Notes: generated by a model not told the origin, from the letters alone. Shown: positions 18,469 through 27,174, counted from the stretch's first letter. The stretch is DNA of 64,000 nt from Rhodospirillales bacterium (GCA_019634165.1 JAHQVT010000012.1:117528-181527), one strand, 5' to 3'. Numbers and translations are program-made.

Positions 18469-18804
18469 ATGTCCGATCCTGTTTGCGAGATACTCTCTGA
18501 CCAAACCGGGATACGTCTGTTTGTGCGTTTAACACCAAAGGCTTCGCGTGATGCGATCAATGGTCTGATGAATGATGCCAGTGGGCGCATGCGCCTTAAG
18601 GTATCGGTAAGTGCGGTGCCGGAAAACGGCAAAGCCAATCAGGCCATGATAAAACTTTTGGCAAAAGCGATCAAATGGCCTAAATCCTCGTTCGGGATCG
18701 CTACCGGAACGACAGACCGTACCAAATTGCTGGTCATTACGGGCAATCCCACAGAGTTAATGTCGCAAATTACCGAACTGACAGGCGGACGCACACATGA
18801 GTAA
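18469..18804 (+). CDS. DUF167 (YggU) family protein
   Basis: [28 protein letters not shown]; conserved yggT-DUF167-folD order. Confidence 0.9.
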
Positions 18805-19696
18805 CGCAAAAATCATCGACGGCAAGGCATTCGCAGCAAAACTGCGCGAAGACATTACAGCCGAAGTAACCAAGCTGAAAGCCGAGCACGGCGTTACCCC
18901 CGGTCTGGCCGTGATCTTGGTCGGTGAAGACCCCGCCAGTCAGGTTTATGTACGCAACAAGGGCAAGCAGACCCTTGAGTGCGGGATGAATTCCTTTGAA
19001 CATAAGTTGTCGCCAGACACCCCGCAGGATGAACTTTTGGCATTGATCGCCAAACTGAATGCCGATCCGAACGTTCATGGCATCCTGTGCCAGTTGCCAG
19101 TTCCCGATCATATCGACGATCAGGCAATTTTGGCGGCAATCGATCCGGCCAAGGATGTTGATGGTTTCCATGTGGTCAATGCCGGTGCCTTGGCAACCGG
19201 TGGCGAAGGTTTCGCACCCTGCACGCCTTATGGCTGCTTGATGTTGCTCAAAGACACCCTGGGCGATCTGTCGGGCAAACGTGCAGTGGTTGTTGGTCGT
19301 TCCAACATCGTTGGCAAGCCGATGGCGCAATTGCTGTTAAAAGAAAGCTGCACAGTCACCATCGCCCATTCGCGCACCCGCGACCTTCCAGAAGAAGTCC
19401 GCCGTGCTGATATCGTGATTGCCGCCGTTGGCCGCCCAAACATGGTCAAAGGCGACTGGATTGCGCCGGGTGCGACCGTGATTGATGTTGGCATCAACCG
19501 CATCGAAGGCGAGAACGGCAAAATGAAACTGGTCGGTGATGTTGAATTTGAAGGCGCATCAAAAATTGCCGGTGCCATCACCCCGGTTCCGGGCGGTGTT
19601 GGCCCGATGACCATTGCGTGTTTGCTGAACAACACCCTGATTTCGGCTTGCCGTGCAAATGGCGTTGCTGTGCCCAACCTTGGTTTTGACAGCTAA
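18797..19696 (+). CDS. folD: Methylenetetrahydrofolate dehydrogenase/cyclohydrolase
   Basis: [40 protein letters not shown]. Confidence 0.97.
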
Positions 19697-19762: not shown

Positions 19763-20581
19763 TTACTGATACCAATCTGTTGGTATAGGTTGTCTGCGTT
19801 GGCTTCGAAGATGGGTACCATGTACAACATGCCAAGCCATCCAGTTACCCGGTTGAGAATCAATCAGAAACACTTCATCAAATGAGAATTCTCTCATTTG
19901 ATAGATTTGATCAATTGCATCTAAGATAAGTAGGTGTGATGAGAGTGACTGGTCGCTGAATTCAAGTGCAAGAACTGCCTTGTTGTTACGCTTCGGAAGC
20001 CCCTGAAACTTCTTCAGTTTGCTTATGAACGCCTTTTCGATCCGGCTATTGCGTAAGCTTTCTAGTGCGGGAGGTGACAGCCTCGTGAAGTTAGTATGTC
20101 CGCCGTGAGGAGTTCTTGTGGTCGCAAGGATGCGGATTTCCAAGCCGTTAATGTTTATTGAGATTTCTTTGTACGGTTGATCATCATTTAGGTCTGTAAT
20201 AAGCGGAATGATTCTGTTGATTCTCAAAGCGGCTTCTCTCGCATTCGCATTAATTGTTCGGCTAGAGAAATCATAAACTTTGTAGGACACACAAATGTTT
20301 ACTTCAACGTGATCTGGAACCGGTGCGGTTACTTCCATCCGTAGTTGTGAAATAAATCGCAAAAACTTTTCATCACCTTTGAGTGCGCCATCATACGGCT
20401 CAATTTGTGTGTGTTCTATCCAATAGCTTGTTCCTTTCAGATCTACATGCCAATCGGTTGCTTTTTTTTCCTGGTCTAGCTCATCTGGTGCGAATTCGTT
20501 GGCGGGCAACGAATTCGTCATACGAGCTAAGAGCTGAACGACAATTTCGCAGCACTTTTTTTGGTTAGGTGTTTCTCCCAT
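19763..20581 (-). CDS. Hypothetical protein, AT-rich, possible PD-(D/E)XK-like nuclease fold
   Basis: 272-aa ORF from ATG 20581 with GGAG RBS; GC 30-52% per 60-nt line in spot counts versus ~53% background; APD...TDW...WIEHT pattern (fold call is inference). Confidence 0.75.
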   Translation of the reverse strand: MGETPNQKKCCEIVVQLLARMTNSLPANEFAPDELDQEKKATDWHVDLKGTSYWIEHTQIEPYDGALKGDEKFLRFISQLRMEVTAPVPDHVEVNICVSYKVYDFSSRTINANAREAALRINRIIPLITDLNDDQPYKEISININGLEIRILATTRTPHGGHTNFTRLSPPALESLRNSRIEKAFISKLKKFQGLPKRNNKAVLALEFSDQSLSSHLLILDAIDQIYQMREFSFDEVFLIDSQPGNWMAWHVVHGTHLRSQRRQPIPTDWYQ

Positions 20582-20646
20582 GCGGCTACCAACTCCACTA
20601 ACTGAAGTGTACGAAATCTGTCTCGTATGATTTGAACGGTCCTGTA

Positions 20647-20750
20647 TTGCAAAGGCCAAGCTCAAAGCGACATCGGGACGCCAACGGCAACTAGTATGAT
20701 TTCAAACACTCAGCCGTATTTCAAGTCAGCGCAAATTCAAAGCCACTGGT
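20647..20750 (-). pseudogene. Decayed copy of the 3' end of the SLC13 permease gene
   Basis: 20647-20705 matches 25036-25094 at 48/59 nt; translates FEIILVAVGVPMSL*AWPLQ versus IEIIVVAVGVPMLLWVWPL*; weaker gapped similarity continues to ~20750. Confidence 0.85.
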
Positions 20751-20979
20751 ACTGCAAATACAAGCGCCATCATGATGCGTCTGGCCTGATTTCTTATTGG
20801 TTGGTTTGGTTTATTGATCGGCCTTGCCGCGTGCAGTGCGGTGAAGTATTGCTGCATGCCGCTGTCATCTGAATAATGATGCCGCGATCTTTTTCCACCA
20901 GATGAAATTGGTGTATGCTGGTCGTCTTCGGACCATCATAATGAAGTTTGTGCGCTTCTGATTGAACAAGGTTTTACCG

Positions 20980-22278
20980 ATGCCCCATTCCCAACCCGAA
21001 CTTGCCTATGGCCGTGGATTTATTTCGGTAAAACTGCCCGACACTGCGCGCGCGACCGTCATTCGTAAGGCCGAGCTTGCAAAGCTTCCTGACAATCAGG
21101 TTGCCATTCGAAATGCACTTGAAAATCCGGTTGATGCCGCACCGCTTTCGGAGCTGGCCAAAAATCGCAAAAGTGCCTGTATCCTGATTTGCGATATTAC
21201 CCGCCCCGTTCCCAATAAGCTGTTCCTGCGCCCGATGATCGAGACGATGCTCGCGGCAGGCATCGCGCAAAGCGAAATTACCGTTTTGGTTGCGACCGGT
21301 CTGCACCGACCCAATCTGGACGAAGAGCTTGAAGAACTTGTGGGTGACCCGTGGGTTTTGGAAAATGTTCGGGTTGAAAACCATTATGCGCGGAACGAAG
21401 ACGATTTGATCGACCTTGGCGTAACGCCAACCCGTGGTGTTCCGGTCAAGCTTAACAAACGTTTGGTCGAGGCTGATCTTCGGATTGCAACAGGCTTGGT
21501 TGAGCCGCATTTCATGGCAGGTTGGTCTGGCGGGCGTAAAGTTGTTGCGCCTGGTGTTGCCGGACATGAAACCATCCGCACATTCCATTCCGCCCGTTTC
21601 ATGGAAGACCCGCTGGCGGTTCAATGCAATCTTGCAGGCAATCCGCTGCATGAAGAGCAGCTTGAAATCGTTCGCAAGCTTGGCGAGACATATGCGCTGA
21701 ACACCGTTCTGGATGAAGACCGTGACCTTGTTCATGTGACATTTGGCGAAATCATCGCCAGCCACCTTGCCGCTGTGAGCTATATTTCAGAAGCAACCCG
21801 TGTTGATGTTGGCCGGAAATACAGCACCGTGGTTACGTCGTCTGCTGGTTATCCGCTTGATAAAACCTATTATCAGACGGTCAAGGGCATGGTCACCCCG
21901 ATGGATATCCTGAAACCCGGCGGGACCTTGATCATTGCATCAGAATGTTCCGAAGGGTTTGGGTCCGAGGAATTCCGCGATGCACAGGCAAGGTTGGCCG
22001 AGCTTGGGTCCGAGCGTTTTTTGGCAACGCTGAAAGCCAAAGCACTTGCCGATATCGACGAATGGCAAACCGAAATGCAGCTTAAACCGATGCGGGTTGG
22101 CAAGGTGCAGCTTTATACCAAAGGGCTGAGTGCGGAAGAAAAACGCATTACCTGTGTTGAGGTTGTGGATGATCTTGATCAGGCCATTGCGCACAGCATT
22201 GCGCAAAGCGGTGATATGGACGTCGCCATTATCCCCGAAGGCCCCTATGTCATTCCGGTGTCGGGCAACAATGAATGA
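20980..22278 (+). CDS. larA: Nickel-pincer-dependent lactate racemase superfamily protein (LarA homolog)
   Basis: DITRPVP, ATGLHRP, EPHFMAGWSGGRK, GYPLDKTYYQTVKG; start ATG 20980 (TTG 20962 possible). Confidence 0.92.
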   Translation: MPHSQPELAYGRGFISVKLPDTARATVIRKAELAKLPDNQVAIRNALENPVDAAPLSELAKNRKSACILICDITRPVPNKLFLRPMIETMLAAGIAQSEITVLVATGLHRPNLDEELEELVGDPWVLENVRVENHYARNEDDLIDLGVTPTRGVPVKLNKRLVEADLRIATGLVEPHFMAGWSGGRKVVAPGVAGHETIRTFHSARFMEDPLAVQCNLAGNPLHEEQLEIVRKLGETYALNTVLDEDRDLVHVTFGEIIASHLAAVSYISEATRVDVGRKYSTVVTSSAGYPLDKTYYQTVKGMVTPMDILKPGGTLIIASECSEGFGSEEFRDAQARLAELGSERFLATLKAKALADIDEWQTEMQLKPMRVGKVQLYTKGLSAEEKRITCVEVVDDLDQAIAHSIAQSGDMDVAIIPEGPYVIPVSGNNE

Positions 22279-23516
22279 ACCATATCCATCTTGATGCTGT
22301 TGGCGGGATTGCCGGCGATATGTTTATCGCCGCAATGCTTGATATGATCCCGCATCTGCGCCCAACGATTGATCAGGACATAAAACGCATTGTTCCCTCC
22401 GATGTTGGCAGCGTTGAAATTGCGAAAATCCGCAAAAACGGCATGCATGCCCAAACGTTCAATCTGGTCTTTAACCCGGATTATGAAGCGCATGGCAAAT
22501 CGGATCATGGGCATGATCACGAACACGATCACCGCATAGGATCTGGCGCATACACCGATATTGTTGGCTATATCCGGTCTTCTGAACTGGCACCGGGTAC
22601 GATTGAGGTTGCCTGTGCCATCTTGACGATTTTGGCGGAAGCCGAAGCAAAAACCCATGCGGTTGATATAAAGGACGTTCATTTTCACGAGATTGCCGAT
22701 TGGGATTCTGTTTTGGATGTCGTGATCGCAGGCAGCATCATTGCCGCCTTGGCTGATACCAGATGGAGCGTATCGGACCTGCCGCGTGGCGGCGGGCTTG
22801 TTAAAACCCAGCATGGGTTGTTGCCCGTTCCGGCCCCGGCAACGGCCGAAATTCTGTCCGGATTTGCGTGGCGTGATGACGGTGTTTCGGGTGAACGTGT
22901 GACTCCAACCGGTGCCGCCATCTTGAAATATCTGATTGATCCAGAAAATACCGATGCGGCTTGGCCGAGGTCTGCAAGGTTGCTTGCAAGTGGTGTTGGG
23001 GCAGGAACGCGCACCATTACGGAATTGCCAAACATTCTGCGCGCATTGCAGTTTAGTGCGGCATCTGAGGCGGGCGATGCAGCCTATGATCAGGATCATG
23101 TTACGGTCATTGAATTTGAAATCGACGATATGACAGGCGAGGAAATTGCCACTGCATCGGAAATTTTACGCGGTTGTGATGGTGTCATTGATCTGGTGCT
23201 ATTGACAGGTCAGGGCAAGAAAAACCGCGCGGTGACGTCGTTCCGATTATTGGCACAGCCTGCCTTGGCAGACCATGTAATGGATGCGTGTTTTGCCCAG
23301 ACATCGACCATCGGTCTTCGTCATCAGGTGAGCGAACGACGTATCCTGCGCCGTGTTGCAGGACTTGATAAAAGTGGTGTTCGGGTCAAGCATGTTACGC
23401 GGCCTGATGGGGTTACGTCGTGCAAGGCGGAACATGATGATTTAACCGGCAAAGATTTGCATTCTCGCCGTCGTCAAAAATACCAAGCCGAACTACAAGC
23501 TGAACAAAAGGGGTGA
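22275..23516 (+). CDS. larC: Nickel-pincer cofactor nickel insertase LarC
   Basis: GIAGDMFIAA, His-rich HGKSDHGHDHEHDH, VHFHEIADWDS, PVPAPAT, TPTGAA, IDDMTGE, TSTIGLR. Confidence 0.93.
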   Translation: MNHIHLDAVGGIAGDMFIAAMLDMIPHLRPTIDQDIKRIVPSDVGSVEIAKIRKNGMHAQTFNLVFNPDYEAHGKSDHGHDHEHDHRIGSGAYTDIVGYIRSSELAPGTIEVACAILTILAEAEAKTHAVDIKDVHFHEIADWDSVLDVVIAGSIIAALADTRWSVSDLPRGGGLVKTQHGLLPVPAPATAEILSGFAWRDDGVSGERVTPTGAAILKYLIDPENTDAAWPRSARLLASGVGAGTRTITELPNILRALQFSAASEAGDAAYDQDHVTVIEFEIDDMTGEEIATASEILRGCDGVIDLVLLTGQGKKNRAVTSFRLLAQPALADHVMDACFAQTSTIGLRHQVSERRILRRVAGLDKSGVRVKHVTRPDGVTSCKAEHDDLTGKDLHSRRRQKYQAELQAEQKG

Positions 23517-24304
23517 GCATGGTTTTGCGTTCTCACCAATTTCTTGCCGATATCATCCTTGCCCAACCGCGTCTTGCAATCGCGGTAAGCGGTGGTGTTG
23601 ATAGCATGACGCTTGCAACATTTGCTCACATGGTGGCAGCTGATCGGATTGAAATGCTGCATGCTGTATCGCCTGCTGTGCAGCCTGCTGCGACGGTTCG
23701 GGTGCGCGATGCGGGGCGTTTGCAAAACTGGCACTTAACCGTGACCGGCACGGGTGAATTTGATGATCCGCGTTATCGTGATAACCCGGTTAATCGGTGC
23801 TATTTCTGCAAGACCAATTTATATGACCGGATACGCAGTTTGACGTCGGCCCCGATTGCATCGGGAGCAAATCTTGATGACCTAGGGGAATATCGGCCGG
23901 GATTGCTTGCAGCATCGGAACGGGATGTTATTCACCCGTTTGTTGATGCCGGTATGGCAAAAACAGACATCCGCGCACTTGCCCGCGAACTTGGGTTGGA
24001 TGATGTTGCCGAACTTCCAGCGCAGCCTTGCCTTGCCAGCCGCATAGAAACCGGCATTGCGATTGATCCAAACGATCTTGCCTTTGTCGATAGCATCGAA
24101 GGGTTTCTCAGCAACGAGCTTGGCCTAAGCGGGGATGTCAGATGCCGAATTACAAAATCAGGTGTGATTATTGAACTTCCCGAAAGCGAAATAACCTCCG
24201 AAATTCAAGCCCGGATTGCAGAACGTTGCAAGATTAACGATCGCGCGCTTATGGGGCTGCGCCCCTATCAGCGGGGTGCGATGTTTATTCAGGACAGACC
24301 ATGA
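23513..24304 (+). CDS. larE: ATP-dependent sulfur transferase LarE
   Basis: PP-loop SGGVDS, NRCYFCK, DDLGEYRPG, PCLASR. Confidence 0.92.
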   Translation: MSMVLRSHQFLADIILAQPRLAIAVSGGVDSMTLATFAHMVAADRIEMLHAVSPAVQPAATVRVRDAGRLQNWHLTVTGTGEFDDPRYRDNPVNRCYFCKTNLYDRIRSLTSAPIASGANLDDLGEYRPGLLAASERDVIHPFVDAGMAKTDIRALARELGLDDVAELPAQPCLASRIETGIAIDPNDLAFVDSIEGFLSNELGLSGDVRCRITKSGVIIELPESEITSEIQARIAERCKINDRALMGLRPYQRGAMFIQDRP

Positions 24305-24957
24305 AAAACGTTCATCAGCCCGATTGGGACCGACAAAGCCGAACCGGCTTTCCCGAGGCGATCTATTGCGCCCGAAAATCGCCTGAGCAAATCAACATCA
24401 TTATTGAAGATGCGGTTACGCGCCAGCGCCCGCTTTTCCTGACCGCTCTTGGGGTGGAAACCTATCAGGGGCTTGATCGGGACAATAGCGCGCAGCTTGA
24501 CTATGATCATGTGTCGGCCACGGGGATTGTTGGCAAGACAGCGCCGCTTGGACAATCAGGGGTCGGGATTATTGCGGCGGGAACGTCAGATATTCCTGTG
24601 GCGACCGAAGCCCAGAGAACCTTGGCGTTTTGCGGTTATGACAGCACAATGATCCACGATGTTGGTGTGGCAGGTCTTTGGCGGTTACTTGAACGGATTG
24701 AAGAAATTCAGCAATTCCGAGTCATCATTGCGCTTGCCGGGATGGAAGGTGCTTTGTTTAGTGTTCTGGCCGGACTGGTTGAGGCACCCGTAATTGCGGT
24801 GCCAACATCCGTTGGGTACGGCGTGTCAACGGGCGGAAGAACCGCCCTTGAATCCGCACTGGGAAGCTGTTCACCCGGCATCATGACGGTCAATATCGAC
24901 AATGGTTTTGGTGCGGCGGCAGCCACAATCAAAATCCTGCAATCTGCACATAAATAA
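24301..24957 (+). CDS. larB: Nickel-pincer cofactor biosynthesis carboxylase/hydrolase LarB
   Basis: DRQSRTGFPEAIY, AAGTSDIPVA, DVGVAGLWRL, AGMEGAL, PTSVGYG, VNIDNGFGAA. Confidence 0.95.
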   Translation: MKNVHQPDWDRQSRTGFPEAIYCARKSPEQINIIIEDAVTRQRPLFLTALGVETYQGLDRDNSAQLDYDHVSATGIVGKTAPLGQSGVGIIAAGTSDIPVATEAQRTLAFCGYDSTMIHDVGVAGLWRLLERIEEIQQFRVIIALAGMEGALFSVLAGLVEAPVIAVPTSVGYGVSTGGRTALESALGSCSPGIMTVNIDNGFGAAAATIKILQSAHK

Positions 24958-25035
24958 GGGTTAAAAGGCCGGAATCAAATTGTGGCCTTTCATGCTGTGC
25001 GAGGACGGTCGCCAGATTGATTTTGGCGGTGTGAC

Positions 25036-26943
25036 TTACAACGGCCAAACCCAAAGAAGCATCGGGACGCCAACGGCAACCACGATAATTTCAATCGGGA
25101 GGCCAAGCTTCCAGTAATCGCCAAACTTGAACCCGCCGGGGCCCAAGATCAGGGTATTGTTTTGATGCCCGATCGGCGTCAAAAAGGCGCAGGATGCACC
25201 AATTGCAACGGCCATCAGGAATGGATCGGAGCTGGCACCGAGTTGTGCGGCACTACCAATGGCAATCGGGCACATGACGGCTGCGGTAGCAGCATTATTC
25301 ATGAAATCAGATAGCGTCATGGTCACGACAAGGATCAACCCAACCGCAATCACGGCGTTGCCTTGTGCGACACTTTCAAGCAGGAAGCGCGCGATAAGGT
25401 CGGCACTTCCTGTACTTTCCATTGCATTGGCAACCGGTATCAATGCGGCAAGCAACACAATGACCGGCCAATCAACCGCATCATAAAGTGTTCTTGGGGA
25501 CACCACACCAAACAGCAGGGCAGCCAGAACACCAAAGGAGAATGAAACGGCGGCAGGCACAATGCCAAACGCCGCAAGCAGAATGGCAATTGCCATGATG
25601 GCGCTGGCTTTCAGTGCTTGTGATTTATCCCCCAGATAGATCGATCGTTCGGCAAGGGGCGCACAGCCCATCTGGTTGCCAAATTCATTGATCGCAGCGG
25701 GGGCTCCTTGCATCAAAAGCACGTCGCCAGCCTGAATTTTCATGGTGCGCAGGCGGGTCATGGAACGCTGCCCCTGACGTGATAGGGCCAAAAGATTGAT
25801 GCCATAGCGGCTGCGAATGCGGATGTCAGCAGCGGAGCGACCAATGAAATCGGCATTTGGCAGAACCACCACTTCGATCAGTGATACATCATCGGATTGA
25901 AGTGCTTTTTCATGCGATTTTTGTTCGGAGGATGCGTCTTTTTGGTCGCTATCTTTTTTCGTGGCGATTGCCTTTTCGGGGGATTTTTCAGCCTTTTGTG
26001 CCTTGGCCTGTTCTTTGGCTTCTTCCTTTTCCGCGGCATTGGCAGCAGCACTGCGCCACTCAGCTTCAAGTGTTAGTTCAAGCCCGGCCAAGGCACTTGC
26101 CAATCCTTCGGGTTCGGCTTCGATCAGAAGAATGTCGTTTTGATGTAACTCGCGATAGGGGCTTGGGGCGGCGATCCGGCGTTCATCGCGGATCAGTCCA
26201 ATGACCTGTGCATCGGATTTATCAAGTTCCAAGTTAATATCGCGCAGCAGCATTTTGGCCGCTTTGCTGCCTTCGGTAATGCGGGCTTCGGTCAAATATG
26301 ATCCAGTTTCAAACCCTTCTGCCCCGGCACGTTCGCGGGTCGGAACCAAAAACCGGCCAACCAGCATGACAAAGGCCAACCCCGATATGGCAATGGCAAT
26401 CCCAACCGGGCTGTAATCAAACATCGAAAAGCCGCTGCCGGTCAATTCAGCGCGGAAGCCCGATACAATCAGGTTGGGCGGTGTGCCGATCAAGGTTGTC
26501 ATGCCGCCCAAGATCGACCCAAACGCCAAGGGCATAAGGACTTTTCCCGGTGGGACACCTTGTTTGTTGGCAATCTGAAGGGCAACCGGCATCAAAAGGG
26601 CCAAGGCCCCGACATTGTTCATAAAGGCCGAAAGGATTGCTGCCAGCAGACTAAGTGCCGCAAGGGTGACAAACGGTCCTGCGGACTGCGGAAGGACTGT
26701 TCGTGTCAGGGTGTCAACGGCACCAGATTGCTGTAATGCCGATGACAGGACCAGAATGCAGGCAACTGTAATGACGGCGGGGTGGCCAAAACCAACAAAA
26801 GCGGCCTCGGTCGGGACCAGCCCCAAGCCCACACACATCAAAAGGGATGCCATCGCGACCATGTCATGGCGCCAACGTCCCCACAAAAACAGGGCGACCG
26901 TACCAATAAGAACGGTCAGAATCATGATTTGCGGGTTACTCAT
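25036..26943 (-). CDS. SLC13/DASS family permease with TrkA-C domains
   Basis: Start re-called to ATG 26943 (AGGA RBS); SAFMNN, LIGTPPNL, SDFMNNAAT, FLTPIGHQNN; two TrkA-C repeats. Confidence 0.93.
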   Translation of the reverse strand: MSNPQIMILTVLIGTVALFLWGRWRHDMVAMASLLMCVGLGLVPTEAAFVGFGHPAVITVACILVLSSALQQSGAVDTLTRTVLPQSAGPFVTLAALSLLAAILSAFMNNVGALALLMPVALQIANKQGVPPGKVLMPLAFGSILGGMTTLIGTPPNLIVSGFRAELTGSGFSMFDYSPVGIAIAISGLAFVMLVGRFLVPTRERAGAEGFETGSYLTEARITEGSKAAKMLLRDINLELDKSDAQVIGLIRDERRIAAPSPYRELHQNDILLIEAEPEGLASALAGLELTLEAEWRSAAANAAEKEEAKEQAKAQKAEKSPEKAIATKKDSDQKDASSEQKSHEKALQSDDVSLIEVVVLPNADFIGRSAADIRIRSRYGINLLALSRQGQRSMTRLRTMKIQAGDVLLMQGAPAAINEFGNQMGCAPLAERSIYLGDKSQALKASAIMAIAILLAAFGIVPAAVSFSFGVLAALLFGVVSPRTLYDAVDWPVIVLLAALIPVANAMESTGSADLIARFLLESVAQGNAVIAVGLILVVTMTLSDFMNNAATAAVMCPIAIGSAAQLGASSDPFLMAVAIGASCAFLTPIGHQNNTLILGPGGFKFGDYWKLGLPIEIIVVAVGVPMLLWVWPL

Positions 26944-27174
26944 TATGGTCGGTCCTGATGTGAAGGCCATACATTGGCCAATGGAAGAAAAGCCTATGGG
27001 GTTGGGGCTTGATTGGTCAAGCACAGTCCGATGAAATGATGGAAACCCAGTCTAAAACAAAAGCGTTTTCAGAGATATGAGGCTGCTGCCATATTTGTCA
27101 GGAGGATGTGATAGCATCTTCCTGTTTTTATGTGCCAATTTGATTGTTTGATCATGCAAAATGACAGTGCCGAC

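Follow-up and report, generated by a model that had tools for sequence, protein, structure and literature searches.

In the 64,000-nucleotide (nt) stretch of a marine Thalassospira genome (G000) analyzed here, referred to below as the window, a block of four genes, larA-larC-larE-larB, is found between folD and the gene for an SLC13/CitMHS-type permease. Comparison with other Thalassospira genomes showed that the gap between the permease stop codon and the folD stop codon is a hot spot of gene gain that works without an integrase. In the window, the lar block separates the live permease gene from its own former 3' end, which persists as a decaying fragment on the far side of the block. The gene order, given by gene calls with Pfam and NCBIfam, is folD (+), an orphan gene (-), larA-larC-larE-larB (+), permease (-), alkZ (+) and an SDR gene (-).

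A search for direct repeats returned a single family, comprised of positions 20647-20735 and 25036-25124 on the same strand (72% identity over 89 nt). The second copy, proximal to the gene, is the live 3' end of the intact permease gene (25036-27024, - strand, 662 aa), and the first is the displaced and decaying old 3' end (- strand), which is secure over 20647-20726. In a BLAST search of the genome against itself, 20647-20705 matched at 81.4% over 59 nt (48/59), and both copies were found to contain a perfect 21-nt core, CATCGGGACGCCAACGGCAAC, at 20671-20691 and 25060-25080 (- strand). The ungapped match of the 89-mers was 64/89, while the best value from 200 shuffles of the intervening 5.5 kb was 44/89. 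Repeat search, BLAST and shuffles therefore agree with an earlier reading of this DNA made from the sequence alone (the sequence-only reading), which had reported a same-strand copy of the last 20 permease codons at 20647-20705. The live gene ends in EIIVVAVGVPMLLWVWPL followed by its stop codon, while the fragment translates as EIILVAVGVPMSL, a stop and then AWPLQ. These translations bear out the differences that the reading had listed, i.e. three synonymous changes, V/L, V/A, TGG>TGA (W>stop) and TAA>CAA (stop>Q); the list was incomplete, since a non-conservative L>S change (CTT>TCG) had been omitted. The fainter similarity that it had followed to about 20750 proved to be marginal: other permease alleles align to 20726 at most, and 20736-20877 has no significant similarity to any permease (z <= 2.8).

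The identity of the fragment was established by comparison with genome G001, in which the permease gene is followed by 50 nt, a 45%-identical homolog of the orphan gene, and then folD. Window positions 20391-20705, which cover the fragment and the start of the orphan gene, are collinear with the permease end and orphan start of G001 (65% over 319 nt). This collinearity identifies the fragment as the former 3' end of the orthologous gene, as opposed to that of an unrelated paralog, and implies that the ancestor of G000 had the order permease-orphan-folD. The origin from an unrelated, deleted paralog, which the sequence-only reading had named as its own counter-explanation, is thereby contradicted. 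Its central proposal, displacement of the old permease end by entry of the lar genes at the 3' end, is supported by the same collinearity and by the empty sites and the stubs of relatives described below. The C-terminus of the live permease would be either a foreign allele or a duplicate of the resident end, and either fits.

The permease-folD gap across Thalassospira

The site was examined in 37 Thalassospira genomes, 29 of which carry the orthologous permease; the gap itself was readable in 27. All 27 species share the order SDR-alkZ-permease-[gap]-folD-...-tag. Six of these sites (G002, G010, G015, G023, G041, G050) are empty: the stop codons of permease and folD are 57-71 bp apart and enclose just a shared terminator-like segment. 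At the other 21, the gap measures 0.2-5.4 kb and the cargo varies by species. Both the empty sites and the alternative cargo that the sequence-only reading had suggested looking for thus exist, as does a permease followed directly by an orphan homolog. The cargo includes a Mrr-type nuclease, a weak HEPN-like protein, a DUF3800 protein and an AbiEii-like pair. Cargo X consists of a LysR regulator and an EamA exporter, another set combines LysR with a TRAP transporter and an opine-type dehydrogenase, cargo Y is a secreted DUF2059 protein, cargo Z belongs to a lipoprotein-like family, and several orphans are also found.

No integrase or transposase was seen at the site, and recombinase domains were absent from the cargo open reading frames (ORFs) scanned, which come from about 17 Thalassospira loci, the remaining cargo not having been scanned. 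A PF00589 search of G000 identified three genes, two of them of Xer-like size, none of which lies within the window, in line with the earlier statement that no integrase is present. The permease is intact in all three genomes that carry lar at the site (G000, G004, G051). Its sliding-window identity is about 80% to every allele, and the donor cannot be read from it. A look-up of the exact folD protein for strains of the same species returned none on record.

Fragments of the permease end downstream of the live gene were found by nucleotide search in G004, G051 (two), G009, G020 and UBA1131 (G049), so that, including G000, six genomes carry at least one such stub, and in G051 two are nested. 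Several of these arrays can be compared with simpler ones. In G006 and G013 the order is permease, X, folD, with X directly behind the permease, while in G020 and UBA1131 it is permease, Y, fragment, X, folD. In the latter two, X begins at the exact point at which it begins behind the stop codon in G006 and G013, and the fragment retains the TAG stop and the following TTTGTCAC of these X-type genomes. Similarly, Z stands alone in G024 and G046, is preceded by Y and a fragment in G009, and lies at the end of the series lar, fragment 1, Y, fragment 2, Z in G051. Fragment 1 of G051 ends in TGAGGTGGAACTCC, which corresponds to a permease end plus the downstream sequence typical of Y-adjacent permeases. 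Each stub has thus remained next to the DNA that lay behind the permease until the following insertion. As read from these joints, the array consists of additions made in order at the proximal end: Z, then Y, then lar.

The stubs behind the lar block carry a further record. G004 and G051 have the same lar block as the window, followed by a better-kept, 245-nt old permease end. Both of these stubs start at -245 from the stop codon and are 93% identical to about -62, where they diverge; their stops differ (TAA and TGA), and the DNA beyond them is unrelated, with a 181-aa ORF in one and Y, fragment 2 and Z in the other. Over its left 180 nt, the stub most resembles the lar-bearing genomes' own permease alleles. 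In G004, the repeats measure 228 nt and are 88% identical. On the folD side, orf18469 of the window is 95% identical to its counterpart in G004, 84-100% to that in G051, and at most 81% to those elsewhere. By these values the three lar-bearing genomes are mutual closest relatives on the folD side, yet all of them differ behind the stub. Either lar and its stub were pasted before three resident arrays, or the distal layers were swapped with the stub as the left arm; in both scenarios the stub would have acted as homology. The alignments place crossovers inside the stubs. Stub lengths differ (about 80-90, 135, 245, 281 and 136 nt), and scars of the same type mark at least two further insertion events in the genus; Denitromonas and a metagenome contig add one apiece.

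The latter two, which are independent cases, were found among about 130 loci of the same permease family from other taxa, of which no others showed the scar. In Denitromonas halophila (L111 11809-15141), a 281-nt stub, 84% identical, lies 3 kb downstream of the live end, beyond a single cargo gene encoding a CBS-PAS-GGDEF-EAL protein. In the metagenome contig (L191 3405-4813), the stub has 136 nt, is 78% identical and lies 1.2 kb downstream; its cargo is PEP-CTERM-like by a C-terminal motif recognized by eye. Neither locus contains a recombinase. The scars are thus a low-frequency by-product of insertion behind the permease, enriched at the Thalassospira hot spot. No linkage of lar to the permease was found in other genera (73 genome and 71 metagenome loci), barring a distant larB-like match in L210.

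One further genome, G012, has no folD within 32 kb of the permease, and its site is unreadable; the region is either rearranged or carries a large island. Directly behind the permease of G012 (L036 4434-6551) are a UG17-class defense reverse transcriptase (PADLOC, E = 4e-132) and a SLATT partner, followed by more than 10 kb of sugar-utilization genes. The permease ortholog is missing in eight genomes (G003, G016, G017, G021, G043, G044, G045, G047), in which the best matches are paralogs of about 30-40% identity.

Origin of the lar block and of the 21-nt core

Only 4 of the 37 genomes have larA. In G000 and G051 it lies at the permease site, in G009 at another locus, and in G004 at both. At this other locus, larACEB are the last genes of an operon that also includes a sugar ABC transporter, an enolase-superfamily enzyme, an SDR, an FAA-hydrolase-family protein and a DUF4147/MOFRL gene. 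The native lar island is not present in G000, where the copy at the permease site is the only one. The two lar copies of G004, about 3.2 Mb apart (L126 G004:C1:100000-119900; L029 G004:C1:3302000-3319000), are 99.5% identical over 4013 nt, a value which points to recent gene conversion or recopying.

The ends of the block show what was captured. The 90 nt 5' of larA in the window (20872-20961, + strand) translate as the C-terminus of a MOFRL protein (DUF4147/MOFRL, glycerate-kinase-like), in which NNDAAIFFHQM-KLVYAG pairs with NNDAWTFFHQLDRLVHTG (tblastn and translation); this 3'-end relic marks the left breakpoint of the captured block. Positions 20878-20960 are 98% identical to G004 and G051, beyond which similarity stops abruptly. 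According to the junction alignment, the other boundary of the block is the larB stop codon. The MOFRL relic and the boundary at the larB stop show the block to be a piece of an operon cut at arbitrary points, without the built-in sites of a cassette, and since the boundaries are common to all three site copies within about 10 nt, they indicate a single capture event. As judged by these matches, its source was the terminal part of a sugar-acid operon within the genus. That native operon may in turn lie in a genomic island. The sole tyrosine recombinase of G000 that is not of Xer size (C6:215471-215896) is located about 18 kb from C6:233473-239867, the counterpart of the DNA flanking the lar island of G009.

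The 21-nt core of the repeat was examined in an alignment of 30 permease ends and stubs. The exact 21-mer, like its GTC codon, is restricted to the two copies of G000, and the longest exact run that the fragment shares with any other allele is 11 nt. With 17 mismatches in 67 positions, the probability of a run of at least 21 nt is 0.0096. Right of the core, the fragment has long been dead, with W>stop and stop>Q and about 23% divergence from the nearest allele, which implies that the identity of the core is younger than the displacement. The core is probably a short conversion tract or a crossover between the two copies, recent and confined to this lineage. In other genomes the longest exact runs between stub and gene sit elsewhere in the repeat, so there is no common core. 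The 21-mer is not a shared att core, and it is more likely the trace of a conversion or crossover than a recombinase site. Compared by inspection with dif sequences, the core showed no likeness, and a dif/Xer site was rejected.

Proposed growth of the array and alternatives

The account that we favor combines a hot spot, sequential displacement, and illegitimate entry followed by homologous recombination. New DNA enters at the 3' end of the permease gene, which keeps an intact end, while the previous 3' end and all DNA behind it are pushed downstream, the old end as a dead stub (sequential displacement). The ancestor of G000, with the order permease-orphan-folD, gained the 4.1-kb larA-larC-larE-larB block together with about 90 nt of the gene preceding larA at the native locus. 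Each cargo would first have been joined by illegitimate recombination, with or without help from homology: either the permease served as a single homologous anchor, or the end was copied through a break or template switch. In this event 135-280 nt of the gene end would have been duplicated or re-supplied. Cargo and stub would then have permease sequence on both sides, and ordinary RecA-type recombination, using permease and stub as its two arms, could move and reshuffle them among permease-bearing genomes, regardless of the DNA behind the permease there. Mosaic stubs and mosaic flanks are compatible with exchange by homologous recombination in the flanks. We regard the anatomy and the history as very probable, and the whole account including its mechanism as more likely than not.

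Several points weigh against this account. The primary joining has not been observed, and neither microhomology nor a source was found for the spacers (20736-20871 and those of G004 and G051) in the loci, in G000 or in the 37 Thalassospira genomes. The junction on the larA side is a particular difficulty: G000 has 136 nt of unique DNA and a short stub, as opposed to 70 nt and a 245-nt stub in G004 and G051, so that 20736-20871 of G000 stands where the other two have the 70-nt spacer plus the left 160 nt of the stub. Furthermore, G000 keeps three to four more codons of the MOFRL relic than G004 and G051, though the adjoining 83 nt are 98% identical, and its junction therefore cannot derive from theirs. 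Neither simple vertical descent nor a simple crossover within the stub accounts for this junction. The divergence of the stubs is also uneven, the right part being kept and the left lost in the window and the reverse being seen in Denitromonas, and extra events are needed to account for it. Finally, the dependence on RecA is purely our inference.

The most serious alternative places duplication first: a tandem duplication, or repair of a staggered break with template switching, would have copied the resident last 135-280 nt and captured the cargo in the same event, so that the copies were identical at birth and no foreign allele was involved. The lar cargo stems from within the genus and perhaps from the very same genome, so that prior to the first event there was no donor in which permease and lar were linked. 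The stubs of G004 and G051 resemble the lar-bearers' own permease alleles most closely over their left 180 nt, and both ends of the lar block look like random breaks. However, under a simple tandem duplication the joint spacers should match sequence downstream, and they match nothing there, while the later mosaicism shows that exchange between alleles took place as well. The window's own two copies (75% over the last 67 nt) have diverged so far that they do not reveal a common origin. We consider this alternative unlikely, though it deserves to be kept in view.

Two others are weaker. The permease 3' end could be an attB site at which cassettes lacking an integrase, but carrying an attP-like copy of the gene end, are moved by a tyrosine or serine recombinase encoded elsewhere, in the manner of integron cassettes or of phage 21 and e14 at icd. 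This would account for the topology (intact gene end, insert, displaced end), for the position of new cargo, always next to the permease, with arrays growing proximally, for the 21-nt perfect core flanked by diverged sequence in the window, and for like scars behind the same permease family in Denitromonas and the metagenome contig. Yet no recombinase gene was seen at the site in about 30 genomes (cargo ORFs scanned in about 17 Thalassospira loci), and the three PF00589 genes of G000 lie outside the window. The left boundaries of the stubs vary (-80/-90, -135, -245, -281), runs of identity take a different position in each pair, the 21-mer is private to G000 and unlike dif by inspection, and the lar block, a random piece of an operon that carries the relic of a neighboring gene, has no defined recombination site. 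Integration in trans is, on this evidence, improbable. Least probable of all, and scarcely credible, is that the fragment remains from a second, paralogous permease gene that once adjoined lar and has lost most of its length. A short 3' fragment of this kind would be expected from a large deletion of internal or 5' sequence, and G000 does have other, distant CitMHS paralogs; but these are just about 30% identical in protein, whereas the fragment is collinear with the orthologous permease end and orphan gene of G001. In addition, the fragments of relatives retain the stop and downstream DNA of orthologous permeases from genomes without a proximal insert, and two full tandem copies of the permease occur in no genome.

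A possible extension of the favored account, to which we give somewhat less than even credence, is that the displaced end is a working part. Cargo plus stub would then be a "homology-tagged cassette" that RecA alone could paste before the resident cargo of any related genome and loop out again. If true, this would be an integron-like, order-preserving capture array that needs neither an integrase nor a special site, and it would explain in general how hot spots without an integrase could grow by adding cargo instead of replacing it.

Several known systems resemble the locus in part. Prophage 21 and e14 in the icd gene of Escherichia coli carry a substitute icd 3' end, their own integrase and a fixed core. 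As in these prophages, the insertion lies within the 3' end of a coding gene, an intact end is restored and the old end is displaced, so that the gene end is duplicated here as well; in contrast to them, no integrase was found here, a fixed core is absent, and ordinary genes totaling 0.6-4 kb make up the cargo. Integron arrays likewise record the order of acquisition by proximal accumulation and have cassettes without mobility genes. Unlike them, the window has no IntI or other tyrosine recombinase (attI and attC were not searched for), and the repeat is a piece of a coding gene with variable boundaries.

Closer parallels are found in systems without a dedicated recombinase. In type VI secretion system (T6SS) effector and Rhs arrays, sequential displacement has been ascribed to homology-facilitated illegitimate recombination (PMC5361080). 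These arrays and those of CdiA likewise consist of an intact gene followed by a string of displaced 3' ends, with proximal entry and older modules pushed distally; the conserved upstream gene is the anchor, and orphan ends can recombine again. Here, however, the gene is a transporter with a conserved 3' end and not a variable toxin tip, the stubs are non-functional, and the cargo (a cofactor pathway, defense genes, regulators, transporters) is unrelated to the gene, with no toxin-immunity logic and no selection for tip switching. No module of a toxic C-terminal domain and its immunity gene is present: the permease C-terminus is conserved, and the cargo comprises lar, DUF2059, LysR with EamA, lipoprotein-like genes and others. 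Homology-facilitated illegitimate recombination itself is experimentally documented in transformable bacteria (as cited in PMC2884548).

Minimal mobile elements exchange cassettes by recombination in conserved flanks (PMC3787668) and were described as integrase-free hot spots by Saunders and Snyder (2002, as cited in PMC3787668). They share with the present locus conserved flanks (here permease and folD), different whole-gene cassettes in different species, the lack of mobility genes of their own, and mosaic flanks. The classical elements are swapped whole, by double crossover in both flanks, without leaving a scar, whereas here layers are kept, each with a duplicated gene end as a possible homology arm. 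Sequential displacement and minimal-mobile-element hot spots were thus already known; what is new here is layered, scar-leaving, integrase-free accretion at the 3' end of a transporter gene.

Most bacterial hot spots of gene gain lack mobile-element genes, and the route by which DNA enters them is mostly inferred; at this site the joints are still legible. The nested gene ends preserve the order of acquisition, entry at the 3' end of one flanking gene, and later crossovers inside the stubs. In a culturable, non-pathogenic marine genus, this one small locus makes it testable whether homology-anchored illegitimate joining, with ordinary recombination after it, drives the growth of integrase-free hot spots.

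Genes and other features of the window

The distal flank of the site, folD (18797-19696, + strand; Pfam THF_DHG_CYH and THF_DHG_CYH_C), is syntenic in all Thalassospira loci examined. Next to it is the orphan gene (- strand), the older resident cargo, which extends over 19763-20581 from an ATG (272 aa) or to a TTG at 20665 (300 aa). It has no Pfam, PADLOC or NCBIfam match and is AT-rich, with a GC content of 43-47% as against 52-55% in the flanks. Given its hot-spot neighbors in other species, it may be a defense-type gene. A promoter-like TTGAAA-17-AATCAT with an upstream TG is located 5' of the orphan gene, inside the dead permease end (20696-20724, - strand); such sites are regionally not above chance. 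The stub may now provide the orphan gene with a promoter, a role that could account for the better preservation of the last 60 nt of the stub. The DNA from the fragment to the lar block is an unmatched spacer of 136 nt (20736-20871), which has no significant similarity to the spacers of G004 and G051 and no homolog in the 37 Thalassospira genomes.

The lar block itself begins with larA (20962-22278, + strand; Pfam Lar_N and LarA_C), the product of which is a predicted larA-family nickel-pincer 2-hydroxyacid racemase or epimerase. It is followed on the same strand by larC (22275-23516; C1 and C2 fused; Pfam Ni_insertion, NCBIfam LarC1 and LarC2 above cut-offs), larE (23513-24304; NCBIfam TIGR00268, 241 bits against a cut-off of 150) and larB (24301-24957; NCBIfam LarB, 249.5 bits against 175; Pfam AIRC). 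LarB, LarC and LarE, the proteins of cofactor synthesis, each exceed their NCBIfam equivalog cut-offs. LarA reached 362.7 bits, below the 460-bit cut-off of Ni_dep_LarA, and was below the cut-off of every LarAH model too. Going by these scores, the window protein is best described as a LarA homolog with a sugar-acid operon as its native context; lactate racemase proper is not supported. A complete nickel-pincer cofactor module, cut from a sugar-acid operon and kept alone in G000, bears on the role of the LarA homolog there.

The convergent larB and permease genes are separated by a 78-nt spacer (24958-25035), which, according to the junction alignment, is partly common to G004 and G051 and does not occur at the native lar locus; a search for another source returned none. 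The permease belongs to the CitMHS/DASS group, with Pfam CitMHS at residues 44-609, two TrkA_C domains, and Na_sulph_symp to residue 661. A scan of G000 for like local direct repeats returned a few dozen, mostly from one repetitive gene and from tandem paralogs. Dense internal direct repeats were also seen by self-BLAST in G000:C10:219500-241000, which probably represents a giant repetitive gene.

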